A model generated the notes under the pieces. The model was not told the origin of the DNA and did not search any database. It saw only the letters and a program-made list of their open reading frames with translations. Shown here one piece after another: positions 2,698-25,282 of a stretch of 64,000 bases of DNA. The position numbers were made by a program, and so were the translations under genes. The stretch covers positions 16,246,524 to 16,310,523 of the forward strand of contig NC_057749.1 in NCBI RefSeq assembly GCF_004010195.1. The letters are read 5' to 3'. Every line of letters begins with the position of its first letter. Position 1 is the first letter of the stretch. Source of the DNA: Chiloscyllium plagiosum. Lineage: Eukaryota.

Positions 2698-3153
2698 CTG
2701 AGAATGAGGAAGAGAAGGCAGCATTAGGGTAGGGTCTCAAGTCCTGTTCATCACCTTCCCAGCAACACTGAGCACAGCTGGAGACAGCTTTTCTGTGGCG
2801 GGGCTTAATCCCTCACCCTGTCCTGAAGGCAACAAGTGGATCACTCAGGAGCAGTTGAGTTGAGAGTTCAAGTCTGCCTCTGTGGAGACATTCTAATGTG
2901 ACCACGAGTGTACTGCACTATCAGAGGAACAGTTTCCATGTGGCATTATAAAGCTGCTCCGTTAGAGCAAAATGTACCCTCTCTGAACCCACAATCCTGG
3001 CTAATGTGAGACAGGGCAAGGTCTCAGCAATTGACCAGTCATAACTGATCATAACTGCAACCTCTAAGGCCGAGGGGCCTGTACTGCGCTGTAACATTCT
3101 ATGTTCTATAACATAAATCCTTCTTACAAACACTCACAGCCAGTTATACTCAC

Positions 3154-3212
3154 TGAAAGGAATACTCAGTTATGTTTGAAGCTGCTTGAATCTTTTTGAA
3201 AATAAATTGAGC
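3154..3212 (-). CDS. STRC: Stereocilin exon 15 (AQFIFKKIQAASNITEYSFH)
   Basis: attccag acceptor, CA|gtgag donor, 59 nt, phase 0-2; similar to human AQFLWKKMQVPTNLT. Confidence 0.88.
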
Positions 3213-3786
3213 CTGGAATAAAGGAAAATATTATAGGTGCTTATTCTGAACAGCAACTTAACACAGTTCATGTCCAATAACCACAGGACACATTAGAGAC
3301 ACTGAGCACCCATCCAAAAAAAAGTGAATCACTCAGGAAAGGTTAATAAAAAACAGGTTTAAAAACCTGGGTTAATGAGGGAAAAGGTTTGCAAATTTCC
3401 TCTCCATCCTTCTAATGCAAATGAGATTCGGAAACCATCTTTGTTCCACTCTAATAACCGTCTTTGAGAGGTGGGATAACTCGCCGAGGGCCACACATTC
3501 ACCATCTCATGTGACTTTGGAAAGAGAATAGAGGAATGAGGAAAGAAACAGACAGGAGGAAAAGAAGGATTAAGATCCAATTACAAACATCTCCTTGAGT
3601 TCTCTGCCTGAAGCAGGTTCCAAATCCAACCCAGACTGGAACTGGGGATCGAACACCATGTTATTGGCACCAATTAGATTCACACCAGACATCCAGCTAA
3701 CTGAACTAACCAAGGAGCTGGAATTGCTGAGGCAGTACACATTGGTAATGGTAGACGCTCCAATGTTTCTTCCTAATCTCATAGCA

Positions 3787-4094
3787 TCCCTACAGTGTGG
3801 AAACAGGCCATTCTTCCCAACAAGTATCCCACCCAGACCCATTCCCCTACCCCATTACTCTACATTTCCCATGACTAATGTAACTAACCTACACACCCCT
3901 GAACACTATGGGCAACTTAGCATGGCCAATTCACCCTAACCTCCACATCTTTGGACTGAGGGAGGAAACCAGAGCAAACTCACGCAGACATGGGGAGAAC
4001 ATCCAAACTCCACACATACAGTCGCCCAAGGGTGGAATTGAACCTGGGACCCTGGCGCTGTGAGGCAGCAGTGCTAACCACTGAGCCACCGTGT
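3787..4094 (-). mobile_element. HE1-type SINE, near full length
   Basis: tRNA head, GTGTGGAGTTTG body, CR1-like tail GGCCTGTTTCCACACTGTAGGGA. Confidence 0.85.
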
Positions 4095-4809
4095 CCACCC
4101 AGGAACCTCTCCCATTCTTACTGTCTACCATTGGTGTGCTTTGGAAGGATTTACAATTTGACCCTCAACTTGCCTGACTGGTATGAACTTAGCCGTGAAG
4201 TGCTGGATTGGAACTTGAACCCAGAGCTTCTGGCTTAGAAGCAGGGATGCTATCCACTGTATGACCTGACGTCCTTAAAAGATAGACATGTTGTAATAAT
4301 GCAGGAAATCCAACTGGAAAAACACTATGTTTATTGTTAAACACCAAAATAGGGCCATACACAAGACGTAGGTAACTTAGCCCCAGCCTCAGGCAGACAG
4401 TTCTGCAGACTATCCCTGGGTTGGCTTTATTCTTTTTTTAATTTCACCTATTTTTCTAATCAACCTGTTCAGACATTTTATTACACACCTCTGGAACAGG
4501 TTGGACTTGAATGTGGGTCTCCGGGTTCAGAGGTAGGGACACTACCACGGCACCACAAGAGCTCAGGTGTGGAGTTCCAGCCAGACAGACCATTGCCTGT
4601 TACCATGGGAACTCCAACTCGACCAGCTCCACAGGGAGATTAATCCATGATGCCCCATGAACATTGTCAGGGTTATCACAAATACCATTAGTCTTCTGCT
4701 GACCCACATCATTGAATGAAATAAACAGAGAGAGCTGGGTTTATCAAGAGATCTCTGGCACTCTGTAAGAGGAGGAGAATGGTGTTCTGGAGCTCCCACT
4801 CGTACTGAC

Positions 4810-4953
4810 CTGCTGTGGTGACCATGCCCAGTTCTTAAAGAGGCTGAGGTTTCTCAGGAAAGATTCAGAATCAAACACCAGGTCTTTCAATGGGATAAAT
4901 GGAACCAGACAGCCAAACTGGGCCAGCTTGCTCCCATCATCCCTGTTCACAGT
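4810..4953 (-). CDS. STRC: Stereocilin exon 14 (TVNRDDGSKLAQFGCLVPFIPLKDL...WAWSPQQ)
   Basis: ttcccag acceptor, CAG|gtcag donor, 144 nt; similar to human CLLPLLPLKLL...WSEQQ. Confidence 0.9.
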
Positions 4954-5836
4954 CTGGGAAAAAAACACCAACATTTTTGTTAAAGAAGCAAAAGAAGTTT
5001 TGTTAACTGCTGCTGTTAATACAGTCAGCAAACCTGCAGTGTGAGGCACTCCAGAACCATGTACCTTCAGCATTCCCTCCTCCTTCCCTTTCCCCTCATA
5101 TCTTTCCCTGCAGTTCTCATGGTCTCTTACCATCTGCTAAGCTATGGCTTTTCATGCTGGGAAGGCACAGAGAAAGGTGAAGAGAGAGAGTGAGAACAAG
5201 TGTGCACAATGGAGTCAGAGCTATTCCAACAGGCACAGGAGCACTGAAAGCCCTATATTAGTGGACAGCTTGTTCCCTCACCAGTGTGTGTTCATATGAT
5301 GTGAAACTTTGTTCAATTAATGTTTGCTACTGTTAATTTTGAAATGTGTTCTGACTGCTGAGAGACTGAACATAACAGAAATATATATTTATTATTAAAA
5401 GTGTAAGACATTTGGTTCAATAACTGACAAAGTGTAAATGAAGCAAAACAAACAAAGGTTAATTCAAAAGGGAATTTTTGGAGAACCTGTGTCATTTTCA
5501 AGTAACATGGGGACTTTTGGGTAAAAATCCCAAAAGTAGAATAAAAATTCTTGGTAACATTAATTTAGAGTTGGATAGTCGTTCAGTTTATTTCAATCTG
5601 ATCTGAAGCTTGGGTCTTCACTTTGGAAAAAAGGTCAATAAAGTAAAGCACTTACTGTCACTTTAATAAAATTACATTGGAGAATGACGATTATTTTTAA
5701 AAATCTCTTGATACAGTAAGAGACACAAATAGAAAGACATGCGCAGACGGGTACAGAGGGAGATGGGGACAGAGCAATGTATAACACATCATAATCCTTC
5801 AAATTCAACAATCCAAATAGAGTGCAACCTAATGAT

Positions 5837-6765
5837 GTTGTAGTACTGTCAGGACTAATGCCCGAGATACACCAGTTCAAATCCCACCATGGCAATTCTT
5901 AAATTCAAATGACTATTACATCTGGAAAACGTGCTAGTCTCATTAACAATGATTATGAAACTACATGATTATTGGAAACACTCACCCAGTTCACTAATGT
6001 CCTCAAAGGAAGTAAATCTGCTGTCCTTACTATGTCAAGCCTATATGTGACTCCAGATCCACAGCAATGTGGTGGACTCTGAAATGGCTGAGCAAGGAGC
6101 TTGGTGTCATCAGGACTGAGGGTGCTCTTACACCACACGGACCGGAACCGTACAAGGCAGCAGTTCACCACCACATTCTCCAGGGCAGTTATGGGATGGG
6201 AATTAAGTGCTGGCCCAGTGATGCCCACATCCCCATGAGTGAATAAAAATAAATCAGAGTCAAAAGGTCTGATGCTGGAGAAGCACAGCTGCTCAGGCAG
6301 CATCCGAGGAGCAGGAGATTCGACGTTTCGAGCACAAGCCCTTCAACAGACATAAATCAGTGTTGGGGTTCTCAGATTGTATGTGAGTTTCTGCTCCTCA
6401 TTCATGTCAATTCTTTACCAGAGGCAGTGGCAGAGAGGTAATGTCACCAGGCTAATAACTGAGAATGCAGTCTAATGTTCTGGGGCAAGGGTTCGAATCC
6501 CATCGTGACAAAGGGTGAAATTTGAAAGCAATAAAAATCTGAAATAAATAGCAACCAAGTGGCCATTGTTGGGAAACCCCATCTGGATCACCAACATCTT
6601 TTAGGGAAGGAAATCTGTCATCCTTACCTGGTCTGGCCTACATGTGACTCCAGACCCACAGCAAAGTGGTTGACTCTTAACTGCCCTCTGGGCAATTGGA
6701 GATGGGCAATAAATACTGGCCCAGCCAGGGATGCCCTCATCCCGTGAACAAATAAAGAAAAAAAA
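5837..6765 (+). mobile_element. Two copies of a second tRNA-related SINE family (about 5837-6252 and 6423-6765); another copy on the minus strand at about 26295-26470
   Basis: Shared GTTC(A/G)AATCCCA B-box and AAATCTG..GTGACTCCAGA.CCACAGCAA body; A-rich tails. Confidence 0.7.
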
Positions 6766-7048
6766 TGGAAAGAGGTCCGGCCCCATTCATTATCATCCTG
6801 CTCCCTCACCTTGACCAGAGACAAAGAAACTGCAGATGCTGGAATCCAAAAAAGACAGGCAGGAGGCTGGAAGAACACAGCAAGCCAGGCAGCATCAGGA
6901 AGTGGAGAAGTCGATGTTTCGGGTGTAACCCTTCTTCAGGACTACAGGTGGGTGTAAAGGGAGCTGCAGATAAAGGCGGTGGCAGGGGCAGGGTGGTGAG
7001 GTGGGGATAGGTGAATGAAACAGAGTCAGACAAAGAGCTGGCACCTAC

Positions 7049-7216
7049 CCGCACAGCTTCCAGTATGACAGCTTTCTGAGTCGCAGTCAGCTGGGACAGG
7101 AACGGGGTGAAACACGGACACGCACTGGCTACAACGGAGGCTGAAATATTTCTCAGCACCGAGGGACTGAAGCCAGGCAGAAAATGAGCAAACTGGCAAA
7201 TTATATCCACAGTCAC
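7049..7216 (-). CDS. STRC: Stereocilin exon 13 (VTVDIICQFAHFLPGFSPSVL...ACPCFTPFLSQLTATQKAVILEAVR)
   Basis: ttctag acceptor, CGG|gtagg donor, 168 nt; similar to human LCSLHLLLPGLSP...ACSCLAPELSRLSACQ. Confidence 0.92.
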
Positions 7217-7272
7217 CTAGAAATATACAAGAAGCAGTTCTTGTGAAATAATGACACATATGTTATAACACA

Positions 7273-7500
7273 AGGTTTGTGAAGGTTTGTAGCTCAGGTT
7301 GAGGTTTAGGGTGTAGGTTTGCTCGCTGAGCTGTAGGTTTGATATCCAGACGTTTCATTACTTGGCTCGGTAACATCATCAGCGGCGACCTCCAAGTGAA
7401 GCGAAGCTGGTGTCTCCTGTTTTCTATCTATTTAGATATAAATAGAAAGCAGGAGACAACAGCTTCACTTCACTTGGAGGTTGCCACTGATTATGTTATA
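7273..7500. mobile_element. Third fold-back, probably Penelope-derived family (related copy at about 48880-49020)
   Basis: GGTTTGCTCGCTGAGCTG head; CCTCCAAGTGAAG / CTTCACTTGGAGG inverted arms. Confidence 0.65.
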
Positions 7501-7874
7501 AGTGTAAAGCTAAAATACATTATCCATCATTGCACATTGGTCATATTTTGAGAGGATCTCTTCATATAAATTCTTTCTATTTTTATTGTGGGAATTCCAT
7601 GTAAACTATGTATTTACAACTTGCATTCTGTGTTGGCACTGACAGAACCTCTGAGAACTCCTTTTCCACAACTGTTGTTAGTTTGCCTACTTAACCAGAA
7701 ATAACAAAATCAACACATAACCAATTTATTAATCAGACAAACTGAACAGCCATAATTTCATTACCCTGGAAGTGTTTGATAGGGGACAGAGAGAATTTTA
7801 CTCTGTATCTAACTCTGTGCTGTCCCTGTCCTGAGAGTGATGGAATTTGATGGAAAGTTGAAACGGATACTTAC

Positions 7875-7913
7875 ATTAATATTCTGGATAATCTCAGTCA
7901 CAAGTTGATGAAC
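7875..7913 (-). CDS. STRC: Stereocilin exon 12, 39 nt (VHQLVTEIIQNIN)
   Basis: tttaaag acceptor, AAT|gtaagt donor, phase 0-0; same size and position as the recalled 13-codon human exon, but little residue similarity. Confidence 0.75.
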
Positions 7914-8199
7914 CTTTAAAGGGTTAACAAAAAACATTAATATCTGTGTTACTAACAGTCCATTATACTTCTCATTTCTCAGTTAGCATTTAGCTGTTAA
8001 TCATGTCACATTTTCCTCTGCTCCCCTCTCTCCCCTCCGAAGGAACTGACTGTTACTGGAGATAATTGTACTCTCACTGTAGACCCTTGCTCCACTTGGC
8101 TTCTGTTACTGTAAAGGCTGGATTGTAATTGCTGTAACCCCTTTCACCACTAGAGGAGCTCTACATCTGGGCACACACTGACCTACACAATATCTCATG

Positions 8200-8410
8200 C
8201 CTCCCTCCACACGCACACACTCACATACCCCTACCCCCAACACATGCACCCACCCCCACACACTCACCCCCACTCCCACACCCCCAAACACACCCCCCAC
8301 ACAAGCACATACACACTCCCACCCCACATATTCTCCCACCCCTCTACACACTCCCACACCACACACACACCACAAACTCTCCCATACCACACACGCACAC
8401 ACACAGCAAA
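8200..8410 (+). repeat. CA/C-rich low-complexity tract (similar tracts at 1-110 and 55120-55360)
   Basis: Degenerate (CA)n/(C)n composition. Confidence 0.85.
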
Positions 8411-8881
8411 CAATCATGTCATTCAGGAGAAGGAACTACTGCCTCTCTTGATAAGGAACCTGAGTAATTGTTTGATAGGAAGTGATCTCTGTACAAAGTG
8501 GCACCCTCCCCTCAGTGTGGAAGAACATGGGCTCAGGTTTCAATTCAGATCCATGATGATGCAGAGTGACACTCCTGGTGCTGTCTTTCAGGATGATACA
8601 ATGACAACATGATGGCCCAGAGCTGGGTGACTCTATAGCAGGGCTCTGACTCACCTCTTAGGGGATGGAATAGAATCAATGGCACTGTCTTGAACAAGGG
8701 CAACATTCCGACCCATGTTATTCCACAACATACTGTGGGATCTTGCTGTGCACAAATACATTCCCATCTCTCCTGGTAGTGACCAATGATTGGTCGTATT
8801 CCTTCCTCCCTTCCACTGCCATGTGCTGCCATTTCCCTCTGCTCCACCCTCTGCTCCTAGCTACATGGTACAGGAACCTAC

Positions 8882-9064
8882 CTGGGCTCTGGAGAATGGC
8901 ACGGACCCAATACTGGAGATGATGATTGACCTTTGATGAGCTGGCAGCGTTCTCAGGAAGCTGACCCCGAGCACTGGCAGGAGGCTGCCAAGCTGCTGGA
9001 AATCCCACTGGGTCACAGTGCTCATGTTCTGTCTCCGCAGGTGAGTTGCTAAAAGCAGTGCAAC
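8882..9064 (-). CDS. STRC: Stereocilin exon 11 (VALLLATHLRR...LGVSFLRTL...FSRAQ)
   Basis: gatcag acceptor, CAG|gtagg donor, 183 nt, phase 0-0. Confidence 0.9.
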
Positions 9065-9164
9065 CTGATCACAAAATATGGACAAATCGGGAAAGAAAGG
9101 CTATTCAGTCCATCATGTTACTGCATGCAGATTGCGATGCCTCACTGCCTCCCTTCAGTACATG

Positions 9165-9360
9165 ATGTGGAGGGGCCGGTATTGGACTGGGGGGGGCAAA
9201 GCTAAAAATCATACAACACCAGGTTATAGTCCAACAGGATTATTTGGAAACAGTAGCTTTCAGAGCACTGCAGCTTAATCATGTATCTGTGAGTGACGCT
9301 CCGAAAGCTAGTGCTTCCAAATAAACCTGTTGTATTATAACCTGGTGTTGTGTGATTTCT
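9165..9360. mobile_element. Second fold-back, probably Penelope-derived family (copy also at 55924-56123)
   Basis: CAACACCAGGTTATAGTCCAACAGG ... CCTGTTGTATTATAACCTGGTGTTG inverted arms. Confidence 0.7.
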
Positions 9361-9643
9361 ACCTTCATTGCAGATAGCACCACACAGCTAGCTGCTTTTA
9401 AATGTCTTTATTCATATATCTCCATTGAGGGTGTACAAAGGCTTTTAACACATTTGACCCTCCGAGATCTGCATTCGAATTCTCTTGTTGACTATTCCCG
9501 AGGGTTTGCACAATGGAAGTAGTTTGGGACATGGGGAGGTTGCAGGGATGAGGACCAGCCGTGTTATAGCAGAAGCTCCTGAGAAGGAGGCCACTTAGCT
9601 CGCTCTGAACACATTCTTCATTCATTAAAGATTAGATAACTTT

Positions 9644-9955
9644 TTAGATTAGATTACATTACAGTGTGGAAACAGGCCCTTCGGCCCAACAAGTCCACAC
9701 CGACCCGCCGAAGCGCAACCCACCCACACTCCTACATTTACCCCTTACCTAACACTACGGGAAATTTAGCATGGCCAATTCACCTGACCCTGCACATCTT
9801 TGGACTGTGGGAGGAAACCGGAGCACCCGGAGGAAACCCACGCAGACACGGGGAGAACGTGCAAACTCCACACAGTCAGTCGCCTGAGGCGGGAATTGAA
9901 CCCGGGTCTCAGGCGCTGTGAGGCAGCAGTGCTAACCACTGTGCCACCGTGCCGC
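9644..9955 (-). mobile_element. HE1-type SINE, young full-length copy with (TAATC)n tail
   Basis: CpG-rich copy with A/B boxes and a ttagattagatt terminal repeat. Confidence 0.9.
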
Positions 9956-10659
9956 CTATTAAGGTCACAGATCCACAGTTGATCTGCATCTCAACCCTAT
10001 TACATGGCATAATGCTGGGTATGGTCAACTTCTTATTTCCTACAATCATTCTACACTCTTTAAACTTAATTGCATGCTTTTAAAAATTACTAATAACTCT
10101 GTTTTATCTAAACTCACAGGTTTGAAACACCTCCGATCCTCAAAACTAGCTTAGAATACTGAATGGACTCACAAACTCTTAACATTCGCCTGTCCCTGTG
10201 TTTTTGTCTTTGCCGCTGTTTACCTATTATTTACTGTCTACACTACCTAACTCTGTGATCTGCCTGTATTGCTCGCAAGACAAAGCTTTTCATTGTGCCT
10301 CGGTACACGTGACAATAAATTCAACTCAATTCAACTAAAGAAAACTACCTCCATTTTGAAACTTTTAATTGACCCTAACCTCAACGCATGACTCAGTGAG
10401 AAAGAGAGAGAGCTCCAGATTTCCAGTCCCCTTCATTGGCTTCCTGACATCGCTCCGAGATGATCCAGCTCTAAATGTGAGGTTACACTGCACTTTTTCC
10501 AGACTATCCCTCCCAAAGGGGACAGTTTCCATTGAGTTTGCGTTTGGAGTGAGGGGGAATGAGAAGAAAGGTCCCAGTGACGATAGTTTGAGTCTCAAAA
10601 GCATGTAGAGCGAGGATGAAACCAGCAACAATTTTTAACTCAATCGTCCGTTTATTTGC

Positions 10660-12710
10660 AGAATGAAATAATTCATGAACGTGGATGAGTGAGAGGTTAT
10701 CCAATTTGATCAGAGGAATAGAAAGGCAACTTATTATCTAAGTGGAGAGAAACTTCAGAGTGCTTCGATGCAGAGGGATCTGGGTGTCCTTGTGCATGAA
10801 TTGCAGAATAGCAGTATGCAGGTGCAGAAGGGAATAAGGAAGGTCAATGGAATTTTAGCATTTATTGCTTAAGGAATAGGGTATGAAAGTAGAGAGCTAT
10901 TACTGCAGCTGTACCAGGCAGTAGTGTGACTCCACCTGGGTATTGTATACAATTTTGGTCCCCTTACTTGAGGAGGAATGTAGTTACACTGGAGACTGTT
11001 CACAGAGGATTCACTAGATTGAATCCAGAGCTTGTCTTATGAAGAGAGATTGAGCAGTTTAGGCCTATACTCTCTGGGGTTTAGAAGAACAAGAGATTTA
11101 ATTGTGGGATATTACATTCTAAAGGGGATTGACAAAGTAGACATAAAGAGACTGTTTCCTCATGGGGAAATCTAGAAGGAGGTCATCATTTTAGATTAAG
11201 ATTTAAAACAGAGATGATGAAAAATTACCCTTCTCAAAGGGTCATGAATCTCTGGAATGCATTCCACATTTATCAACATTTACAGCACACGCTGCATCCA
11301 AAAGGCTAAGAGCATTGTGGAAGACCCCACACACCCCTTACTCAAACCCTCCTCCCACCTGCCATCTGGCAGAAGATACCAGAGCATTCGGTCTCTCATG
11401 GCCAGACTGTGCAAAGTTTCTTCCCCCAGGTCATCAGGCTCCTTAACACAGCATGATCAGACTCTCTTCCATCTGAAATTCTTTGCACAACTTCGAATTG
11501 CTGCTAGGGAAATGTTTATTATTTATCATTCTTCGATCACACTGTAACTTGCATATTTTGCATTTCTTATGTACTTTCTGCTGTGTACATGTGTGTAGTT
11601 TGTGCTGTCCATGTAGCACCCTCAGTCCTGGAGAAATACTGTCTCGTTTTTACTCTATCAGTTGTATCTGGCAGAAAAGACAAATGAAAGGCTACTCTAC
11701 TCCCAGAGTGTGGTGGATGCAAAGTCATTGAGACATAGAGTTATGGTCATGCAGCATAAAACAGACCCTTCAGTCTGACTCGTCCATGCCGACCAACTTT
11801 CCCATACCAAACTAGTTCTATTTGCCTGCATTTGGCTCATATCCCTCTAAACCTTTCATATCCATATACCTGTCCAAATGTCTTTTAAATGTTGTAACTG
11901 TACCTGCATTTACCACTTCCTCTGGCAGTTCCTTCAACATATGAACCACGATCTGTGTAAAAAAACGTTGTCCATAAGGTCCCTTTTAAATCTTCTCCTC
12001 TCACCTTAAAACTATGCCCTCTAGTTCTGAACTCCCCTACCCTAAGGAAGAGACCTTTGCTATTACCCATGCCCCTCGTGATTTCATACACCTCTATAAA
12101 GTCACCCCTGAACCTTTTATGCTCCAAGGAGACGAGTCCCAGCCCAACAGCCTCTCCCTATTACTCAAACCCTCCAGTCTCAGCAACATACTTGTAAACT
12201 GTCAGCACCCTCTTCAATTTAATAATATCCTTCCTCTAGCAGGGTGACCAGAACTGTATATAGTACTTCAAAAGTAGCCTCACCGACATCCTGTACAATC
12301 GCAACATGACATTCCAACTCTTATACTCAATGGTCTGAATACTCTCTACGTATTTGCTCCTTAGTTTCCTGCTGACTATTGGGGGCCTACAGTACAATCC
12401 CATTAAGGTAATATCCCTTTCTTATGTCTTATTTCCACCCACATAGCCTCACTGGACCACCCCTCAGGAACATCCTGTCTAAGTACATCAGTCATGCTTT
12501 CCCTAATCAAAAACGTCACTCCCCTTCATCTCTTGCCTCCCTTTCTACCTTTCTTGTAGCATCTAAATTTAAATTTAAGAAGGAAATAAACAGATTTTTA
12601 ATTAGTTATGGAGAACAGGCAGGAAAGTCAGGCCAGGATGAGATCGCACTGAAGGGAGGGGCAGGCTGGAAGGGCTGAATGGCCTACTCCTGCTGCTAGC
12701 TCTTACACTC
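10660..12710. mobile_element. Nested LINE cluster: CR1 3' region (+) interrupted by a Rex/Babar-like 3' end (about 11256-11702, +) and inverted CR1 pieces (about 11732-12565, -)
   Basis: CR1 motifs (AGGGATCTGGGTGTCCTTGT) resume after the inserts; ORF 11257-11547 has DPTHP..LPSGRRY typical of Rex1/Babar; minus ORF 11885-12127 has RGDFIEVYEI. Confidence 0.75.
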
Positions 12711-13106
12711 TTTGCTCAAGTCCATACCTCCTAACCCATGCACCCCGAGCTGTAGCAAGTCTCGATTATTCTGCTCAAGACAAACCATTTACACTGGTAT
12801 GGACTGGACCATGTCCACTTTGAGTGGCTTTTGTAGATACTGACTCAGAATCTGGTGAAAATCCCAAACAGGGACAGTTTGGTCCTTGAAGCAATGACTC
12901 ACTTGCAATGACAAAGCATGATCTTCAGACAGCTCCCTCCTGCCTCTGAGGTAACACCAAGGAAAAGTTGCAAACCTCCATCAAAACCAGATGGAGGGGT
13001 GACAAAGACCAAGCTTTCTTGACTGAATTCACTGACCTGTCGCGATTTCTATCCCAGTTGGGAACAGTCTCGGAGCTGCTAATCAGTCGGAATCTCGAGA
13101 ACTCAC

Positions 13107-13239
13107 CCGTCCGTCAGTATCGATTGTCCGGTCGGAGACACATCCCAAAAGAGCCGAGGTGATGTGGTCCGAGTGAGACGGGGCAGCCAGCAGCAGCTGG
13201 AGATCCTCTTCATTGGCGAAACATATCAGCTTTCCGAGT
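13107..13239 (-). CDS. STRC: Stereocilin exon 10 (LGKLICFANEEDLQLLL...ALLGCVSDRTIDTDGR)
   Basis: tttccag acceptor, CGG|gtgag donor, 133 nt, phase 2-0; similar to human LGPLACFLSPEELQ...LLECAANGTLSPEGR. Confidence 0.9.
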
Positions 13240-13415
13240 CTGGAAAGGAAGTGACAATTGGGAAAAGATTAGCTTTCCAGCTGGGATTTCTCTTCTCCGG
13301 GAGTAAATTCCCACTGGGACACGGGATCCTCCATCATCCAGCAGCAGGACTCTGGGACCATGGCTCAGCCTGACCACAAAGGCTAGCTCCCACTGTGTAT
13401 GCGGCATTGGCACTA

Positions 13416-13622
13416 GACCAGGAGGGATGTAGGGGCTGGAGGAGGTGACAGAGATAGGGAGGGGGTGAAGGGGCTGGTGGAGGTGACAGAGATAGGGAGG
13501 GGGTGCAGAGGCCAGAGGAGATGACAGAGATAGGAAGGGGGTGGAGGGGCCAGAGGAGGTGACAGAGATAGGGAGGGGGGTGTAGGGGCTGGAGGAGGTT
13601 ATAGAGATAGGGAGGGGTGTGG
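13416..13622 (+). repeat. About 39-bp purine-rich minisatellite (GAGATAGGGAGGGGGTGTAGGGGCTGGAGGAGGTGACA); further units at 13883-13970
   Basis: About 5 directly visible tandem units. Confidence 0.9.
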
Positions 13623-13673
13623 GGTCACTATCAACGAGGGTTTACAGGAAAGTCTAATCCTGGGAACTATTAC

Positions 13674-13789
13674 CTTCTGATGTTGCCCGCGGTCAGGTTC
13701 CAACTAGAGTTCAGGAGAGTGCGGATTGAGTACCTTCCGTGAGCTGGGTCCAAGCTGTTGTTTCCAAACCCATCGAGCATTGAAAGGAG
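13674..13789 (-). CDS. STRC: Stereocilin exon 9, copy B (tandem duplicate)
   Basis: Identical to 14022-14137 including both splice sites, offset 348 bp. Confidence 0.8.
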
Positions 13790-14021
13790 CTGCAAATAAT
13801 ACAGAGAGTTATTCCTGTACACTGAAACCCTCACTCACGCTCTCTTCCCCTCCTCCTCCCGGAGATGCTAATGTCAACTGCTGAGGAGGTGTATGGGCCA
13901 GAGGAGGTGACAGAGATAGGAAGGGGGGTGTAGGGGCTGGAGGAGGTTATAGAGATAGGGAGGGGTGTGGGGTCACTATCAACGAGGGTTTACAGGAAAG
14001 TCTAATCCTGGGAACTATTAC

Positions 14022-14137
14022 CTTCTGATGTTGCCCGCGGTCAGGTTCCAACTAGAGTTCAGGAGAGTGCGGATTGAGTACCTTCCGTGAGCTGGGTCCA
14101 AGCTGTTGTTTCCAAACCCATCGAGCATTGAAAGGAG
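14022..14137 (-). CDS. STRC: Stereocilin exon 9, copy A (LLSMLDGFGNNSLDPAHGRYSIRTLLNSSWNLTAGNIRR)
   Basis: tttgcag acceptor, AG|gtaata donor, 116 nt, phase 0-2; identical to copy B. Confidence 0.85.
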
Positions 14138-14676
14138 CTGCAAATAATACAGAGAGTTATTCCTGTACACTGAAACCCTCACTCACGCTCTCTTCCCCTC
14201 CTCCTCCCGGAGATGCTAATGTCAACTGCTTCAGCCAGACGGTTCGAAAATGTGAACTCAGTGAGATTATGCTGACCAGCTCATCAACCGTAGCAGGCAT
14301 CACATCTGCCTCCAATATCCACAGAGACTCTGTTTCCGGCTGTGAACCAGGGGCAATGTTTAGCTCCCATCTGGGTAAACCCCTTCCCCCAACTCCTGTA
14401 TGCGGGAGTTTGGGGTTGAAGGTCAAATAACCTGATAATTCTTGTCTCCTCTTGAAGGAAGGCCATGCACTGAAGGAAAGGGCAGGGGGGGTGGTGCAAA
14501 GGAGCGGAGTCCTCCCCAACCCTCAGGAAGCCGGGTGGAGGTGGGTCAGTCAGCACCTGAAGGAAGAGGATCGGGGTGAAACACAGGGGAGCCTCCCCTT
14601 CGGCCCCACCATAGATACCCTCTCACCAGCACCCCCCCACTCCCCGCTCCCACCACCGCCTCTTGGTGGTGCTAAC

Positions 14677-14863
14677 CTGCTCAGGCCTCAGCTGCTGGAA
14701 GTGCCTGATGGGTAAGAAGGGCAGTAGAGGCTGCAGGGAGTTCAGGAAGCCTGGGCTCCAAGAGCTGACTGCCCCAAAGCGGTTGGTGTTGAGCAGCCGC
14801 CTGGCAAATGCCCTCTTCTGTTGGGCACTCATATCCGAGCTGCGCTCCCTGAGAGTCGCCAAC
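14677..14863 (-). CDS. STRC: Stereocilin exon 8 (LATLRERSSDMSAQQKRAFARRLL...HFQQLRPEQ)
   Basis: tcgcag acceptor, CAG|gttag donor, 187 nt, phase 2-0. Confidence 0.92.
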
Positions 14864-16483
14864 CTGCGAGATACGAAGCAATGGTCAGCATGGGGTGGGG
14901 GTGGGGGGGGGGCACCACGCGCCAACCACAATAAACCCCCCTCCCCACCTCCCACCCCAAAGATCCACTTCACACCTAATCCCATTCCCCTCTTGTTGGG
15001 ATAGCTTCCCAGGGGATCCATCCTAACTGATTCAGGGAGCCGTTCTCACTCGGCCCCCCGAATCACCCAATCTCCCACTGCAGGAGCTGCTGGATACCAG
15101 TCCGGAGCACACACACACAGCAATCGATCTTGGCATAGGAGCGTCTGATGCCCAGTGTTTGCAAGCTGGTGTGATTGGGGTGGTTTACTGTCTCCTCTAG
15201 TGACTGGGACAAAGGGCATAATTGGTCTAATGTGATGGAGGAAATGCACTCAGTGGACGAACGGGAAAGGGCCCATGTCTTAAGCAAGGTCTTGCTTATT
15301 GTATGGTCACTGCCCAGCATGCTGGAGATGTGTGGTCATCTGGGTGAGGGGTTCTAGTGCCCAGCTGCCAACTCAGTCGGAGGGAGGGGGAGGGGGAAGC
15401 GGTGGGAAGGATTCTTAAGGGGCTTGACAGGGTCAATGCTGAGAGGATGATTCCTGCATGGGAGAGTTTAGGAACAGAAGGTACAGTCTCAGAAGAAAAG
15501 GATGGCAATTTAAGACTGAGATGAGGAGGAATTTTGTCTCTCAGAAGGTTGTGTGTGTTTGGAACTCCTTACCACAGAGAGAGCTGTGGGGGCAGAGTCA
15601 TTGTGTGTATTTAAAGCTGAGATAGAGAGATTCTTGATCAGTCAGGGAAATCAAAGGTTACAGGGAGAGGGCAGGAAAGTGGATGTTAGGAATGTCAGAT
15701 CAGCCAGGATCCCATTACTCAAGGGGCCGAATGGCCTCCTCCTGTCCCTAATGCTGATGGTCTTAATCCTAGTAAGCTTACTCAGCAAACCATGTGACCC
15801 TCTAGCCGTAGGGTAGGGGACTCAAGCCCTAAAATGGTTGCCACTGTTGCCCAGGTTATCGGGGGGTAAGAGGGAGGCAATGTGGATTTGAGGATACAAT
15901 CCAATGACCTTAATGAATGGTGCAGCAGGCCTGTCGGAGGGAATGGCTTTCTCCAGCTCTTTGTTCAGATGTAAGCCTGACTGACACTCCTGTCCTGTGT
16001 TTGGGTGGGAATTCCTCATTGATAACCCCCTACTCCCAGCGAAGGTCACAGCCAAAGCTGGACAGAGGTGGGGACAGAGAGTTCATTTCCCGCTCACTCT
16101 CCCAGACTCTGACTGGACTGCAGCAGACCCCCAGGCCCTGACAGAGACTGTGGCTTGGCTCATTGCTCAGGGCACCATATCCAGCAAGAATGGCAAATTT
16201 TCATTTCCATAACACCTCTTCCAACACCAGGATATTCAAACAGCTTCAGAAATGCTTTTCTGCAATGGACTGTCTGTTTGTAAAGTAAGAAACACAGCAG
16301 CATGTATTCCTGACAGCGAGGAGATCAGGAGCTGGTGACGCTAAACGATGGATTCATTTGGGAGGAACACCTTCTTCCCCCATCCCCGTTAGTTTGAAAT
16401 AGTGTTCACAGGATCATCGACATCAACACAGACAACATCTCAGGTCACAGTTTACATTTCACCCAAAGACCATTCGTTTCAAA

Positions 16484-16940
16484 AGTGTGGCACTCCCTCA
16501 GTACTGACCCTCCAATAGTGCAGCACTCCCTCAGCACTGACCCTCCGACAGTGTGGCATTCCCTCAGCACTATCTATCCAACAGTGCAATGCTCCCTCAG
16601 CACTGACTATCCAACAGTGCAGCACTCTCTCAGCGCTGACCCTCTGACAGTGCAGCACTCCCTCAGCACTGACTATCCGACAGTGTGGCACTCCCTCAGC
16701 ACTGACCCTCCAACAGTGTGGCATTCCCTCAGCACTATCTATCCGACAGTGTGGCACTCCCTCAGCACTGACCCTCTGATAGTGCAGCACTCCCTCAGCA
16801 CTGACCCTCCGACAGTGTGGCACTCCCTCAGCATTGACCCTCTGACAGTGTGGTACTCCCTCAGCACTGACCCTCTGACAGTGTGGCACTCCCTCAGCAC
16901 TAACCCTCTGACAACATGGTGCTCCCTAAGCACTAACAGT
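16484..16940 (+). repeat. 33-bp minisatellite, about 14 copies (CAGTGTGGCACTCCCTCAGCACTGACCCTCCGA)
   Basis: Directly visible; gives the repetitive ORFs 16479-16889 and 16485-16955. Confidence 0.95.
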
Positions 16941-17048
16941 GGGTGGATGTGCTGAATTATGGGTTTCATTTCTAAGTGGGATCTGTACTGATGCTGTGTG
17001 AGTCTGAGAGAGCCCCTCATCGAGCCACAGCTGCCTCTCTGTGATCCC

Positions 17049-17275
17049 GAGCTGAAAATGTGTTGCTGGAAAAGCGCAGCATGTCAGGCAGCATCCAACG
17101 AACAGGAGAATTGACGTTTCGGGCATAGGCCCTTCTTCAGGAAGGGCTTGATAGGAAGGGCTTATACCCGAAATGTCGATTCTCCTGCTCCTTGGATGCT
17201 GCCTGACCTGCTGCGCTTTTCCAGCAACACATTTTCAGCTCTGATCTCCAGCATCTGCAGTCCTCACTTTCTCCT
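17049..17275. mobile_element. Fold-back short element, probably Penelope-derived, with a minimal hammerhead core; family copies at about 6255-6350, 6820-6945, 44940-45112, 51317-51482, 55743-55822, 59943-60135
   Basis: Arms at about 17049-17126 and 17165-17241 are reverse complements (GCTGGAAAAGCGCAGC.../...GCTGCGCTTTTCCAGC). Confidence 0.75.
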
Positions 17276-17395
17276 CTCTGTGACCCCGAGCCAATGAGCA
17301 GCCTATATTCTCAGCAGAAAGGGACAGTAAATGTTGATCAAGTGCAGGAAGCAGGCAGAGTGTGAGGCTTTTATCCTTGTTGCTAATGAACTCAC

Positions 17396-17562
17396 ACGCT
17401 GTCATTCAGAAGGAGTGACTCCGGGAAACCATGAATATCCGACACACTCATGAAAGGAAGGAACTGTGACAGGTCCACAAAGAGGTCAGGGGTCACTCGG
17501 GGAAACTTCTGCAGGAAGGCAGCAGTGAACGTTTCCAGGGCAGGTCGATTGCTCTGAGAAAC
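17396..17562 (-). CDS. STRC: Stereocilin exon 7 (VSQSNRPALETFTAAFLQKFPRVTPDLFVDLSQFLPFMSVSDIHGFPESLLLNDSV)
   Basis: 167 nt, phase 0-2; strong similarity to human [30 protein letters not shown]. Confidence 0.93.
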
Positions 17563-18243
17563 CTGGAGGACAGAAAGATTTAACATTCTTCAAGCCACAT
17601 CCAGAGACGATAATATACAATGCAGTTAAAAACTGCTTCAGTCTAATATTCTATCTTGGGGGCATTATAAAAGTTTCTACACAAGGGAATGGTGCATCAG
17701 CTTGAGGTCCCAATGCTGGCATTGGTCCAGCGGTGATATGAACATACAATCTCGGAGCAGGCCATTCAGCCCCTCAATGCCAGCCCATCCATTTGATAAG
17801 TTCAAGGCCTCAACTTGTGACTGAGATTATCCAGAATATTAATGTAAGTATCTGTTTCAATTTTCCATCAAATTCCATCACTCTCAGGATAGGGACAGCA
17901 CAGAGTTAGATACAGAGTAAAATTCTCTCTGTCCCCTATCTGGGATTGTGGTGGGACCAGTCAAGAGGGCATTGGATGTTATTTAAATAGAAACAAGGTG
18001 CTGGGCTATGGGGAAAGGGCAGGAGATTGGCACCAGGTAATGATGCCCATTCAGAGCCAGTACGGATATTATGGGCCAAATGGCTCTGGCTGCACTATAA
18101 CATGCCTGTGATTCAGAGGCTGGAGGAGGTTATAGAGTGAGGGAGAGACAACACCAGAGGCAGCTGAGATACGGATGAGCTATGTGAAATCAGCGTGTTG
18201 CCAGCCTGGGTACCAGTGTATCAGTGTCCAAAGCTGTGCCCAC

Positions 18244-18354
18244 CTGGAGTTGGCGCCAGGCCCGGTGCATGTGAGAGAGCAGTTTCTTGACACTCTCACT
18301 TTCAGCTGACATCAGAATCTTCTGCAAATTCTCCCGGGGCATCAGCAGGTATTC
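18244..18354 (-). CDS. STRC: Stereocilin exon 6 (EYLLMPRENLQKILMSAESE...WRQLQ)
   Basis: ttcccag acceptor, CAG|gtggg donor, 111 nt; similar to human YLHMPPENLQQLVLSAERE. Confidence 0.88.
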
Positions 18355-19326
18355 CTGGGAATGAGAGAAAATACTCAGAGACAGCATCATTGTCATAGCT
18401 TCATCATTCTCCCTTCAGTCTTCAGTCCTGAACTCGACGCTGCAGGGACTGGAACGGTGCCCGAACACTGCCTGTCCCCAGCTCCCTGTCTCAAGGGTCT
18501 TGGGGGAAACCACATCCTCATCATCCGAGTCAGTCACGTAGACCGGTAAATGCCAACCCAGCGAGTTTGAGAATCGAGGCTGACACAGGGACCTGTGACT
18601 GAGGGAGTGCTGCACAGTTGCAATGCTACTGTCAGCTGAGAGGCTCAATCAAGGCCCTGTGTGCTCACTCAGGTGGAGACCCTGAAGGGACACCCTCCAA
18701 CCAGGGAGGGAGAGCCTACCTTCAATAACCAAGACTCCCCTGAAAGAGGTGACGGTGTTCAAGGAAACTTGCAAAAACTCACGCTGCTGATTTATTCTTA
18801 AACCACGCAGTTTTTCCCAGCTCCTTAAAGGTGAGGTTTGTGACCATCCGACAGGCTGCTGCTGGAGGTGATTTTAATCAGCTAGTGGGGTCTTATGAAA
18901 CAGGCAGATATTCAATACTTCATTGAGCGTTTGAACACCAAGGAGTTCTCATTTAGGTGTGTACAAACAAGCATTCGAAGTTAGGAGTAGACCATTCAGC
19001 CCTTGAGAATGCTCTGTCATTTGATATTATTGAGTCTGATCTGATTGTAGCATGAACTCCACTTTAATGTCTGATATTGTAACCCTGACTCTCTGGTTGG
19101 TCAAGAAGATACCAATATCCGCCCAGAAGCTCCACTGCTGGCCCAGCCTCCACTGCTTTTCTGCAGAACTGCGGTTCCCAGACACTCACCCCTCAGAGAA
19201 AACAATGCTTCTCAACTGTGTCTTAAACTGTACCCCTGTTTCTGAAACAAAACCTGAAATTGCTGGTGAAACTCAGAATTGCAGAATCATCTGTTAAAGA
19301 GTTCTTTAACAAAACAATACTATTGG

Positions 19327-19515
19327 AGATCTGAAAATGCTGGAGAAACTCAGCAGGTCTGGCAGCATCTGCAGAGAGGGAAACACAGCTCCCGTTTCTA
19401 GTCAGATATAATTCTTTGTTGAATGAAGAAGGGTTCACTGGATTAGAAACATTAACTGTTTCTCTCTCCAGAGATGCTGCTAGACCTGTTGAGTTTCTCC
19501 AGCATTTTCAGATCC
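19327..19515. mobile_element. Fourth fold-back family (copies at about 27560-27640 and 43880-44000)
   Basis: GATCTGAAAATGCTGGAGAAACTCA ... TGAGTTTCTCCAGCATTTTCAGATC inverted arms. Confidence 0.7.
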
Positions 19516-19654
19516 CCAACAGAATGATTTCATTGAAGAACTGATTAACAATTGATTCTGCAATTCTAATTTCTGCTGCAAACATTCTCACCTTCAGGTC
19601 AGACTTTAATTTAATAAAGTTCACTCAAAATAATTAATCTCACACTCAATCTGA

Positions 19655-19878
19655 ACTGAGGGGGTGCCACACTGTCAGAGGGTCAGTGCTGAAGGGGTGC
19701 CGCACAGTCAGAGGGTCAGTGCTGAGGGGGTACTGCACTGTTGGAGGGTCAGTGCTGAAGGGGTACTGCACTGTTGGAGGTTCAGTGCTGAGGGGCTGCT
19801 GCACTGTCGGAGGGTCAGCGTTGAGAGAGTGCCACACTGTTGGAGGGGCAAATACTGAGGGAGCACCGCACTGTTGCA
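19655..19878 (-). repeat. Same 33-bp minisatellite in the opposite orientation, about 6-7 copies
   Basis: CTGAGGGGGTGCCACACTGTCAGAGGGTCAGTG units. Confidence 0.92.
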
Positions 19879-20189
19879 GGTTGGTCTTTCAAGTGAAATG
19901 TTAAACTGAGGCCCCATCAGATGAATATAAAAGGTCTCATGACACGAGGTTGAAGAGCAGCAGTGTTCTCCCCCCCCCAGTCCTGGCCAATAATTCTTTC
20001 TGAATCCACAACAGAAAAACAGATGAGCGGAGGGAGCTATTTGGTGACTGGGTGTGGCTCCTCCCTGCCAGCTAAGTCCTCATTACAACAACATCGACAC
20101 TTCTGACGTCAATTTTCTGTAAAAGGCTTTGAAATATCCCAAGATTGCGAAAAGGGATTGTCAAAATGCAAGTTCTTTGTTTCTCTTAC

Positions 20190-20252
20190 CTGAAAAAGAT
20201 CCCTCAGGGCTGGTGAATCCTCCTCATTCTGTAACATGGCCCAGAGAACTGG
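20190..20252 (-). CDS. STRC: Stereocilin exon 5 (PVLWAMLQNEEDSPALRDLFQ)
   Basis: ctgcag acceptor, CAG|gtaag donor, 63 nt, phase 0-0; resembles the recalled human segment LWELLQREKSVWALQILVQ. Confidence 0.88.
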
Positions 20253-23200
20253 CTGCAGGTGGAGGTAAATCAGAACAAGATTGTGTCAGAATTTACCTTT
20301 AATCAGTCATTGCAACTTCTCCCCCTTGATTTTGTTCTTTCAGGGGATACTGATGCATCTCATGGTACTGTTTACGTTCAGGTCATCTTCTGGAACTCCA
20401 TTCTCCAGCCGTGAGACTAGATGGTAAACATGAGCAGACTATTTGGCTGCAGAAGCCTCACTGCCACCACCACACATATCCCAAGAGGGTCCACTGCAAA
20501 GGTCAGATGTGACAAGACTGATTGCACCCCTGCCCTCCCCCATCACCACCACCCCCACACCCCTCACCAGCCCCCCCACCCCGCCTTGGTTGAATTGCAC
20601 AGTCAGATGTAATTGACAAAACTTTAACATTCAGGACAAGAGTTGCAGGCTGACTTACATCCCCCAAACCCTAGTGGGATTCAATGCCTTTAGAAGGAGC
20701 AGGAGTTAGTAACTGTGTATGGGATATTAAAGCAGCGTGCACAGGCGATTAAAGCACTCTCACAGTCACACAATTGCATGGAAATATTTCAAAGGAGGCC
20801 AATATTTAACATTTGACCAACATCATCAAAATAATTTATCTGCTCTTTGTCATATTTCTGTTTGCAGGAACATGCTGTGTCTGAATTGATTCACATTTTT
20901 CCTGCGACAGTGACTACACTTCAACAAGTGGATTGTAAAAATGCTATATAAATGTTAATCTCTCTTCCTTTTTGTGTGCGTTTATAACTCACTCAGGTAA
21001 CACAACAGCAACATCAGTAAATGGGTCACAACTCAGAAAATTATTAATTTCAATTCCATAATCCGTTGAACTAGTCTAAATTCGAACACTTTATTGTATG
21101 AGATTTATCGCACTCTTCTGCAGGTATTGTATGTTCCATGTTCGACAGAGCTGGTCCAATTAGTGAGGTGATACAAGTTGTTAAGATATATCTACTATTC
21201 ATTTATGTACATGTAATTATTCAGTGCATAGACTGAGGCTATTATAGGTCACTGAAATATCACAAATTGCTTCAAGCTTTACCAGTTTGCACTAAATCCT
21301 TCACTTTTTTTTTGAAAATGTGTGGGAAAGATTATTGTTACTGTTGGCATCACCACAAGCTGAATACAGATGTAGAGATAGTCTTTTATTCTGTATTGAC
21401 CCCATTCCTGAGTCTATCCGCAAGTCAGTTTGTGTTCAAGTCAGAACACAATGCAGGACAACGTAAAGCAGCTGTTACAAAGTACAGGAAATGTGTGTAT
21501 GTCAGATCTTTAAAATTATTGTTCCCCATATCAGAGAGTGCTCAGAAGAATGAGTGTTGGTAAGTTGGGGAGCCCATGCATATCCCAATATGCTGCTACG
21601 ACAGATCATAAGGTTATGAGCCTGAATTTCACAGAATCTTACGGTGCAGCAGATTTTGCAGCCCATTGTGGCTGCATCAGTGTTTTGTTAGTTAGATCCA
21701 ATTGCTTCTGTTTCCTCTGCTCTTGCCTCTGTGGCATATCTGCCAGGCTTAGTATTTATAGGGACATAGGAACAGGGGGAAGATGGCAGCTCTTGTGGCA
21801 CGGTGGTAGTTCCCTTACCTCTGGACTAGAGATCCAAGTTCAAGTCCCATCTGCTCTAGAGGTGTATAATAACATCTTCGAGCAGTTGATTAGAAAATAT
21901 CTAGGAACAGGCCACTCTGTCTGTCGAGTCTGCCCTGCTGTTCAATACAATCACGGCTGATTGAACACTTTAATGCCTGTTACCCACCCAACCCCAAAAT
22001 CATATATGTCATTGGTAATCAGAAATGTATCAATCTCTACCTTAAACATAAGGACTGAGCTTCCACAGCCCTGTGGGGTCAAGAATTCCAAAGGTTCACA
22101 ACCCTCCAGGAAAAACAAGAATTCTCCTCATCTCAGACATTATCCAATTCCTTTCGAAAGTTACGGTTGAATTTGCTTCTATGACCTTTGCAGATGGTGG
22201 ATTCCAGATCACAATAATTCAATTTTGTCAATTATGTCAAATCTGTATCCTTTGGTTATGAACCCTCTTGCTAGAGAAAATATTATTTCAGATAACAGCA
22301 GGTAAAAAGGGGGAAAACCCATACAGTCTCCTCCTGCTTCCAGTTTGTATGCTCTTGTAATATTAAACAGCTCCTTAACCTTTTCTGCTGTGAACAATCC
22401 CAGCTTCCCAGGTCTGCTGAAGGACAGACGTCATTGGTACAATCTGGGAAATCTCCTCTGCATTGTCCTTTTGAGAGCCTGGTGCTCAGGACTGACTCAA
22501 CATTCCTACTACATGCATCCCAACCATCTCTCAGAATGTAACTATCAGCCAATAAGACCTTAAATTAAAAACATTGACCCTGTCAAGCCTCCACCCTCAG
22601 AATCCTGTATGTTTCAGTGGATTCACCCTTATTTCTTCTAGACTCTAATGAATAAAGGCCTAATCTGAACAGCTATTTCCAAAACATCAGCTCTTTCAAC
22701 ACAAGAATCAGCCTAGTTAATCTCTTTTGAACAGCCTTCAATGTCCACACATCCTTTCTTAAATATAGGGGACCAGAACTGTACCTAATCCTTCACGTGT
22801 GGTCCCAACACCCTGCACTGTTGTAATAAGAATTCCTTATTTTTAAACTCCAAGCTCCTAGCATTAAAGGCCAAAATGCCATTCTTAATTTCTTGCTATT
22901 TTCCATGTTTCATGCACGGGGACTGCCACGCTGCGCAAATTTTGAGTCTCTCTCCCATTTAAACAAAAGCTTATCTTTTGATTCGTCCTGCTAAAGTGCA
23001 TGACCTCACAGTTTACTAAATGGAACTCATCCTCCAAGTCTTTGACCACTCCTTTAATCCTACCCCTATCTACAACCCTGCTTGTCCAATCCACCTGTCC
23101 CTCGGGAACAGCTCTCTCTCACCTGTACCGGCCCCGATAAGCCATGAATTGAAACCCATTTCTCCCACACCAATATCTGAGCAGTAAGTGAATTGTGACA

Positions 23201-23427
23201 AGTTGAATTTTGTTTGTGACTGCTGCTATTTGTGAGGATAACTGTTCTGTAATTTTTTAAAACAAATTTCATAAATAATGTATTTGCGACAGAAGGATGT
23301 TATCATTGACGAAGGACTTCAGTGCTGTGGAGAGATTAGAGGAGCTGGGATGATTCTCCTTAGAGCAAGGAAGTGTAAGGGAAAGCCCCTTTGAGGTAGT
23401 GCTCACATTGATATCCCTATTGCTTAC

Positions 23428-25282
23428 ACTGAAGCAGTTGAGAAGGTCATTTTTAAGGGCTCTGTCAGTCTCTTCCTTTAAGTAGCTGTCAATAGTCTGT
23501 AAAATACTGATGGAAGCATTGGGATTGAAGGCTTCCCAGAAAGAATCATTGTCCATTAAGCTGGAGAGAAGAATGGCCTCACTCAAAACCTCTTGTACTT
23601 CCTTCTCCCTATGATTGAGGCTGGATAAGTCCAGGATGTAGTTGAAGACTTGGAGAATATAGTTGGCGTTGGAAATCCAGCTGAAGGCCTGGTCATCACA
23701 CTGGTTGAGACGATCGAGGAGGTCAGTCAGGAAAGCGGTTGGATTTTGACACAGCTGAGTTGTGTTGAGGTTCAAGGCTATTGGAAGTTTGTCGAGCCAG
23801 TGGCCTACAAAACACTCCTCATCTTGTGGTTCTTTGGAGGCCACACAGTAATTTAAGACCCAAGGGTGCAGCTGTGACATTATGTCATAAAGAGTGGCAT
23901 TCTGGCAAATTATTTGCTTTAAACCTTCGCTGTCCTGGGCTTTACAACTTGCTAGAAGGCTGCCATTGATCAACATCTCGTATGACCATGTCTTGTAATC
24001 ACATTTTAATGGAAGGCTTTCAACAGGTAAAGAATTCAGTGCTCTCTTCAATTCATCAAAAAGGTTGCAAAAACGAATCAACCAGGACACGGTCCACTCA
24101 ACTTTCAAAGATGTTCCATTGGCACAGATATCGTGGATGAGAGTTGTTCCCCTCATTAAGGTGCACTCCTGCAAATCGATGATGGTGGCATTTGGAACTT
24201 TAAACCCTCGGTGACACTTGCTGGTTGAAAGCTGCAGGCCCTCTAAGCTCCTGATGGTGTGCGCACAGACGAGGCTGCTCCAGGCACCAGCTCCTGACAG
24301 ATCCTTCAGGAACGTCCTGTTGAAGCAGAGCTCCCTGATATACTCAACACCCAGGTGAAGGATGCACTCCTGAATCAAAGTCTTTTCTATACTGGAATTC
24401 TGAAATATATAGTGACATTCGCTATTGACAATGTTTATTTCTTCAGAGTTAGTAGTGAGCCATGAACAGACTGGGATAATCCAGGGCTCAACCACACTGA
24501 GATTCTTCAAGGATCTCATTTGGGAGCAAAGGTAGTTGACAAAATCAGTCCCACTCTGATCACCCATGATTAAAGAGATGGCTTCCATTTTCAGTCCATT
24601 TCGCTGTCTGCAAAGATTCATGATCAGCCTCTTGTCACCAACCACACTGGTCAGGAAAGTGTCATTCGAACAAAGTCTGTGGATATAATCTGCACCTTTG
24701 GCCAGCAGACAGGCCTGGATCTCCTCTGAGCTTACACTCACTCTGGTTGACAATCTGCCGCAATTCCTGGCAGAGGTGCCATGTTTCCTTGACCCGCTCT
24801 GCAGCCTGGCACAGAGCTGGTTGAAGTCTTGCCGGCTCAACAGGGAGACGTTGCTGCAGACAGTGGAGTTGAACTCCGAGGTGTAAAACTGGCGGCAGAC
24901 CTGAACCCAGTAAAGATCCTCCTGAACTGCGGAGAAGTACCAGGCAGCATCTGAGCAGGCAGCCCGGAGGTCTGGTGGGGCCTGGCTTACGGCTGTGGTC
25001 TGGTTGAAGAGGTTGCAGTAGAGATAGATGGTGAAGTTGGAGATCCCTGGGAGTCTGGGCATGGAGTCGTTACAGGCAGCCTCCAAAGTTCCGGTGTAAG
25101 GAAAGTCATGGTCACCTTTAACAGTTTCCCCAGATCGTTTGGACACTGTATGGGAATTTCTTCGCATGTCTCGGACTTTGTCACTCAGGCGGCTACAGGC
25201 TAAAAAAGGTGTCTCGGTCAAAACTCCTTGAGAGCTGAATCCCAGTATCGGAATATTCCAGGAGATGTTATTTCTGATCCCC
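23428..25282 (-). CDS. STRC: Stereocilin exon 4 (1855 nt, Cys-rich, many N-x-S/T sites)
   Basis: Core of the 679-aa ORF 23269-25308; starts (W)GIRNNISWN after tgcag, ends LLNCFS|gtaagc. Confidence 0.92.

Follow-up and report, generated by a model that had tools for sequence, protein, structure and literature searches.

The doubled ninth coding exon of stereocilin in a Chiloscyllium plagiosum assembly is probably a false duplication

In the assembly of Chiloscyllium plagiosum, the ninth coding exon of STRC, the gene encoding stereocilin, is found twice in tandem within the window analysed here, a stretch of 64,000 nt from contig NC_057749.1. The second copy is probably a false duplication introduced during assembly (a reading to which we give a probability of about 65%), the animal itself having one normal exon 9. 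This is favoured because the junction between the copies is missing in four contig sets, contigs run unbroken out of the repeat, one sequencing run (X1) shares the local haplotype of the assembly and depth in X1 and X2 fits a single copy, and also because the differences between the copies cluster at the junction, the gene is intact with one copy, no other exon is doubled and the assembly is gappy. A previous sequence-only reading had left three options, i.e. a null or hypomorphic allele, an incipient mutually exclusive exon pair or an assembly artefact. The last is the best supported, while a private null or hypomorphic allele is a less likely possibility.

The shark stereocilin gene and its ninth coding exon

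A long open reading frame in the window matched 50 proteins. Almost all of them bear the name stereocilin or stereocilin-like, and the top match, from Chiloscyllium punctatum, is 96% identical. Identity was 96% with the Hemiscyllium and Chiloscyllium punctatum models, 83-86% with those of Stegostoma and Rhincodon and 41% with zebrafish, and the shark gene displays a PF21058 domain together with full-length similarity to named stereocilins. Exon mapping, which placed 27 coding exons, each flanked by AG and GT, on the minus strand between 29434 and a point 23 kb past the left edge of the window (the final exon lies outside the model), confirmed that the gene is STRC and that the repeated exon is its ninth coding exon, as had been read from the sequence (Table 1). 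With a single copy of exon 9, the 27 mapped exons form an open frame of 2025 codons with no stop. Creatine kinase exons (PF00217) are found on the plus strand 40-50 kb left of the window, tail to tail with STRC, which is presumably also the arrangement of human CKMT1B and STRC. Stereocilin similarity and this tail-to-tail neighbour argue, at the level of sequence, that the shark gene is the orthologue of STRC. Stereocilin expression and function in hair bundles are established for mammals (DFNB16), and the label of 'deafness gene' previously attached to the locus holds in the shark only via orthology to the human and mouse gene.

Two conserved small coding exons of STRC, of 25 nt (26917-26941) and 39 nt (7875-7913) on the minus strand, are missed by plain tblastn. 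The introns contain 33-nt minisatellite arrays in opposite orientations (16484-16934 and 19656-19847), and frameshifted reverse-transcriptase-like open frames upstream of the gene (34031-34964) belong to what we take, from peptide motifs, to be a LINE-type element. A second PF21058 gene on contig C36 was considered as a paralogous back-up and rejected as not close enough, being only 18-43% identical in pieces to stereocilins. This distant member of the stereocilin family (C36:1432700-1466500, L012-L015) has a large exon with a cysteine-containing repeat run, cut by a 500-N gap.

Among 16 cartilaginous-fish proteins, 13 could be aligned over the whole of exon 9, and the remaining three are partial or gapped models. 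In a set of 150 proteins of relatives, 139 have one match to exon 9, ten have none and a single one has two. This one, P0052, is a sturgeon model that carries an unverified flag and contains a multi-exon repeat. Protein models cannot reveal an out-of-frame duplicate, and this survey shows only that exon 9 is conserved. The Cetorhinus, Heterodontus and Narcine models (P0051, P0053 and P0060) have inserts of ~40-100 residues at or just past the exon 9/10 boundary, within which no second exon 9 match was found and which are likely to be predicted pseudo-exons. The Chiloscyllium punctatum model P0001 is without most of exons 6-10, present both here (window 18354-13107) and in Hemiscyllium, which is probably a prediction or assembly problem of that record.

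The tandem repeat as assembled

The claim of a repeat at an offset of 348 was borne out by base-by-base comparison. The two 336-nt copies are identical at 335 positions, the sole mismatch (13573/13921) lying in the minisatellite part as had been noticed, and 13574-13882 and its partner amount to 309 bases with no mismatch, which would point to a recent event if the duplication were real. Tandem Repeats Finder gives a period of 348 and 2.0 copies, overlapping the 38-nt G-rich minisatellite of intron 9. The true repeat unit is 348 nt with five differences, once the minisatellite-like 12-nt spacer is counted. When 256 bases of the unit were searched against the entire assembly, exactly two places matched, both at the STRC locus. 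As a sequence the doublet is far beyond chance, yet as a class it is not rare (see below). No doubling of any other STRC exon was found in 524 kb. The window contains no N bases and hence no N-gap between the copies, the nearest gap being 13.5 kb off; an ungapped junction speaks against an artefact and for a genuine allele.

Table 1. Features of the STRC locus discussed in the text (positions within the window).
Feature	Position	Strand	Remarks
STRC gene, coding exons 1-17	1051..29434	-	exons 18-27 lie 3-23 kb past the left edge of the window
STRC coding exon 8	14677..14863	-	187 nt, single copy
STRC coding exon 9, first copy in transcription direction	14022..14137	-	116 nt, phase 0 to 2
Intron between exon 9 copies	13790..14021	-	232 nt, GT-AG
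STRC coding exon 9, second copy	13674..13789	-	116 nt, identical to first copy
STRC coding exon 10	13107..13239	-	133 nt, single copy
G-rich 38-nt minisatellite, 5.3 units, STRC intron 9	13424..13624	.	strand unassigned; Tandem Repeats Finder; family very abundant in reads
Tandem unit copy 1	13547..13882	+	the final two minisatellite units, the beginning of intron 9, exon 9 and 93 nt of intron 8
Junction spacer, 12 nt	13883..13894	+	with 13895-13921, one minisatellite unit variant, 5/39 different from 13535-13573
Tandem unit copy 2	13895..14230	+	runs on into unique intron 8 at 14231

The junction and the minisatellite

The differences between the 348-nt copies fall at offsets 1, 5, 10, 12 and 39 from the junction, the next 309 nt being identical. 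Under uniform divergence, the probability that all five lie within the first 39 of 348 nt is 1.4e-5. Mismatches that thin out with distance from an end have the look of a noisy contig end, but error-prone repair can likewise cluster mismatches at a breakpoint, which weakens this argument for an artefact. The junction unit is at least 5/39 away from every position of the local minisatellite array and the 12-nt spacer has no exact local copy, both of which count against a genuine allele. The junction has 69 31-mers of its own, with starts at 13853-13921. The first 38 nt of the junction unit have one exact match in the assembly and the 26-mer that opens both copies has two, both at the STRC locus. 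Borrowing of the junction from another minisatellite locus is thus unsupported within the assembly, the 38-mer and the 26-mer matching the STRC locus only. Restriction of the 26-mer to this locus suggests that the sequence at the junction end is of local origin, carrying errors or belonging to another allele. This would be consistent with an artefact, but a locus-specific end is also what slippage would yield, and it can be counted in favour of a genuine allele.

One 33-mer of the minisatellite is also present on two other contigs, and the summed contig depth of the minisatellite reaches 232,651 in run X1 against 12.5 on unique DNA. Such a repeat tangles k-mer graphs. The suggestion that a breakpoint in the minisatellite speaks for slippage or template switching is compatible with the data, but a contig end in a repeat tangle fits equally well. 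The following scenario is what we infer for the assembly. The graph likely broke at the very abundant G-rich minisatellite of intron 9, the left piece likely running through the repeat up to 13882 and the right piece likely starting inside it, with a 39-nt end carrying read errors or another allele. This mismatched end would block the merging of the 348-nt overlap, and the two pieces would have been written head to tail. At two other loci of the minisatellite family (L125 and L126) no similar doublet of 300 nt of unique sequence was found, two loci being too few to judge whether the artefact is systematic.

Similar doublets elsewhere in the assembly

Near-identical tandem doublets were counted in five stretches of the assembly. 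Six two-copy tandem duplications with at least 97% identity over at least 100 nt were found in 1.137 Mb of non-N sequence, the STRC doublet included, i.e. ~5 per Mb with spans of 140-420 nt. The STRC doublet is the most exact of the six. With doublets this common, one catching an exon would be expected by chance somewhere in 3.56 Gb, which lends some plausibility to a genuine allele as well. The sampled sequence (1.174 Mb) has 38 N-gaps, and the assembly is thus gappy. Among the other five doublets, three show flush junctions and a scatter of differences, the pattern expected of old real duplications, and one has a 28-nt spacer. A 174-nt doublet on contig C40 at ~21.127 Mb (within L115) has all seven differences in its first 31 nt, followed by 143 identical nt, the same signature as the STRC doublet.

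Further short tandem doublets are found in the window at 517-652 (period 68, 97% matches) and 60991-61249 (period 127, 93%). Larger in scale, the creatine kinase exons are themselves found twice, at C40:16140682-16143731 and 16189481-16204431 (40-106 kb left of the window), ~50-60 kb apart and with a 500-N gap between. The copies are identical at 147 of 150 nt in one exon, and longer blocks of 471 nt (99.4% identity) and 762 nt (96.6%) also match. This doubling may be a further false duplication or else a partial copy of the gene that arose recently.

Contigs of four public sequencing runs

Four of the 24 listed public sequencing runs (X1, X2, X5 and X6), representing four samples from two studies, apparently of the same species, were compared with the assembly over 13835-15400, which spans the junction, copy 2 and unique DNA. 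The comparison used contigs rather than raw reads, and these had passed through SPAdes-like graph simplification (PMC12424806). The 24 listed runs include no raw DNA reads, and none of the runs that contain the region is recorded as RNA, which says nothing about expression.

In the contigs of all four runs, which may not come from the assembled animal, none covers the junction. Depth in the 53-nt junction bin 13835-13887 is 0.35 (X1), 0.14 (X2), 0.07 (X5) and 0 (X6); a contig across the junction, even at the minimum abundance retained (2), would bring this to 1.32 or more. Contigs of 48-67 nt are present, so a junction contig of 99 nt would not be missed merely for being short. However, graph-cleaning heuristics could delete so short a path beside a high-depth repeat, which is a point against the artefact. 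A depth gap of the kind by which Ko et al. (PMC9516828) recognize false duplications, an N-gap being the alternative sign, is seen in the contigs of 4/4 runs. The absence of junction cover, weak alone, has been given weight only in combination with depth, the shared haplotype and the continuity of contigs past the repeat.

In each of the four runs one contig crosses from 14230 to 14231 unbroken, a point at which a duplicated allele has a k-mer branch. The crossing contigs are 13939-14911 (X1), 13939-14607 (X2), 13935-14267 (X5) and 13981-14486 (X6). The 973-nt contig of X1 matches the assembly at every base, while X2, X5 and X6 each depart from it there at three or more places. The same local haplotype therefore exists without the listed junction, which is hard on the idea of a genuine allele. 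X1 may be the assembled animal, in which case it is not independent but supports an artefact directly; otherwise, the haplotype is shared without the junction.

Read depth, which had been proposed as a check and is assessed here on contigs, gives a mixed answer. The ratio of unit to flank depth, computed from one to three flank contigs per run, is 0.99 in X1 and 0.95 in X2, which fits a single copy, and 1.57 in X5 and 1.34 in X6, which is raised and goes against an artefact. The expected ratios for a heterozygous and a homozygous duplication are 1.14 and 1.28 in X1, 1.21 and 1.41 in X2, 1.44 and 1.88 in X5, and 1.23 and 1.46 in X6. The value in X5 thus fits a heterozygote, while that in X6 is ambiguous, falling to 1.08 against its deepest flank. 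Flank contigs in X5 and X6 are short, with variant sites that may lower flank depth, and one X5 flank is at about half the depth of the unit, as a single haplotype would be.

Frame and splicing with two copies

The exon structure described in the sequence-only reading is correct. Both copies are the full 116-nt exon with identical AG and GT splice sites, separated by an intron of 232 nt, and inclusion of both shifts the frame to a TGA inside the second copy (13713-13711, minus strand, codon 1248). Skipping of both copies leads to a stop at codon 1193 and retention of the 232-nt intron to a stop at codon 1223, while the coding sequence of exon 9 is the same whichever copy is spliced in. Splice strength, scored with a matrix built from STRC's own sites, is ordinary in both copies (acceptor 9.8 bits, donor 6.0 bits).

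The statement that a full-length protein needs exactly one copy was found to be nearly, but not strictly, true. The 232-nt intron has 15 further AG sites, of which 13 lead to an early stop and two (13829 and 13814) keep the frame open, with acceptor scores of -17.6 and 2.6 bits, respectively, against 9.8 at the true site. Use of the weak cryptic acceptor before 13814 would produce an in-frame second exon of 141 nt, with no stop and 47 additional residues.

An incipient mutually exclusive pair, the second option of the sequence-only reading, is unsupported. No device for mutual exclusion was found, since the copies are identical and 232 nt apart, introns are GT-AG on both sides of both copies and there are no inverted repeats of at least 20 nt in 13300-14700, a region that folds worse than 20/20 shuffles (z = +1.73). 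Joint inclusion and joint skipping do both stop early, the pattern on which exclusion by decay, here presumed, would act.

Alternative readings and implications

The main alternative to a false duplication, to which we give clearly less credence, is a real and very recent tandem duplication, either rare in the species or confined to the assembled animal. Slippage or a template switch out of intron 8 and back to the minisatellite would have created it. By default, both exons of such an allele would mostly be spliced in, as the ordinary splice sites of both copies suggest, and the message stopping at codon 1248 would likely be subject to nonsense-mediated decay. The allele would then be a recessive null or hypomorph, probably heterozygous and harmless to its carrier. 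Although the junction is absent in 4/4 runs, including X1 with the assembly's own local haplotype, four animals are too few to rule out a rare allele.

It is very improbable that the duplication is real and common or fixed, with one copy usually spliced in as in a newborn mutually exclusive pair and with double-inclusion messages decayed. The stops on double inclusion and double skipping would parallel those of U2AF1 exons 3 and Ab, the gene is otherwise intact and graph cleaning could hide the junction. However, such a variant predicts depth ratios of 1.28-1.88, against the 0.99 and 0.95 of X1 and X2, the junction is absent in every run, there is no exclusion device and copies that are identical provide no new isoform. 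We give equally little credit to a common or fixed variant in which a letter-identical pair born at the minisatellite is viable through skipping of one copy plus decay, or through the weak acceptor with its 47-residue insert.

If the second exon 9 is an assembly artefact, its value is only that of a warning: the STRC model of this genome should contain a single exon 9, and short exact tandem copies next to members of this minisatellite family should be backed by reads. A real private allele would be an ordinary out-of-frame duplication of one exon, modestly interesting as a natural loss-of-function allele of a hair-cell gene in a shark. Only a common or fixed duplication, unlikely on these data, would stand out, since it would model how mutually exclusive exons begin, before divergence. 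On the leading reading the feature is not real, and on the main rival reading it belongs to a familiar and ordinary kind of allele.

Comparison with known systems

By title or abstract opening, none of the papers matched for stereocilin in sharks reports an exon 9 doublet, and among the matches listed for intragenic duplication in STRC/DFNB16 there is no report of a single-exon duplication, supplements being outside the scope of both searches. Human STRC copy-number variation involves a large segmental duplication with a pseudogene (PMC10668944), in contrast to the single-exon repeat of the shark doublet. A closer parallel in logic is provided by exons 3 and Ab of U2AF1 (PMC5224494), which are tandem homologous exons with a stop upon joint inclusion or joint exclusion, but nothing else is common to the two systems. 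The U2AF1 exons are diverged from each other, show conservation across vertebrates and are under distinct branch-point and stem-loop control, whereas the STRC copies are identical, known from one assembly and have no detected exclusion device.

Duplications of exon 44 or 45 of DMD (PMC1931584) resemble the shark doublet in that an identical pair of frame-shifting exons is created, skipping one restores the message and skipping both is out of frame. The DMD duplications are confirmed alleles of patients, whereas the STRC doublet is a candidate allele, has a spacing of only 232 nt and affects a gene that is autosomal recessive in humans.

False duplications in assemblies, whether homotype or heterotype, are usually separated by gaps and sometimes joined by stretches without read support (Ko et al. 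2022, PMC9516828). The STRC doublet differs from the cases described there by its lack of an N-gap and its unit of only 348 nt, and the tests of that study use the assembly's own reads and pairs rather than contigs as here. Nevertheless, it shares with them adjacent near-identical copies on one scaffold, the inclusion of an exon, an unsupported join and a gappy assembly.
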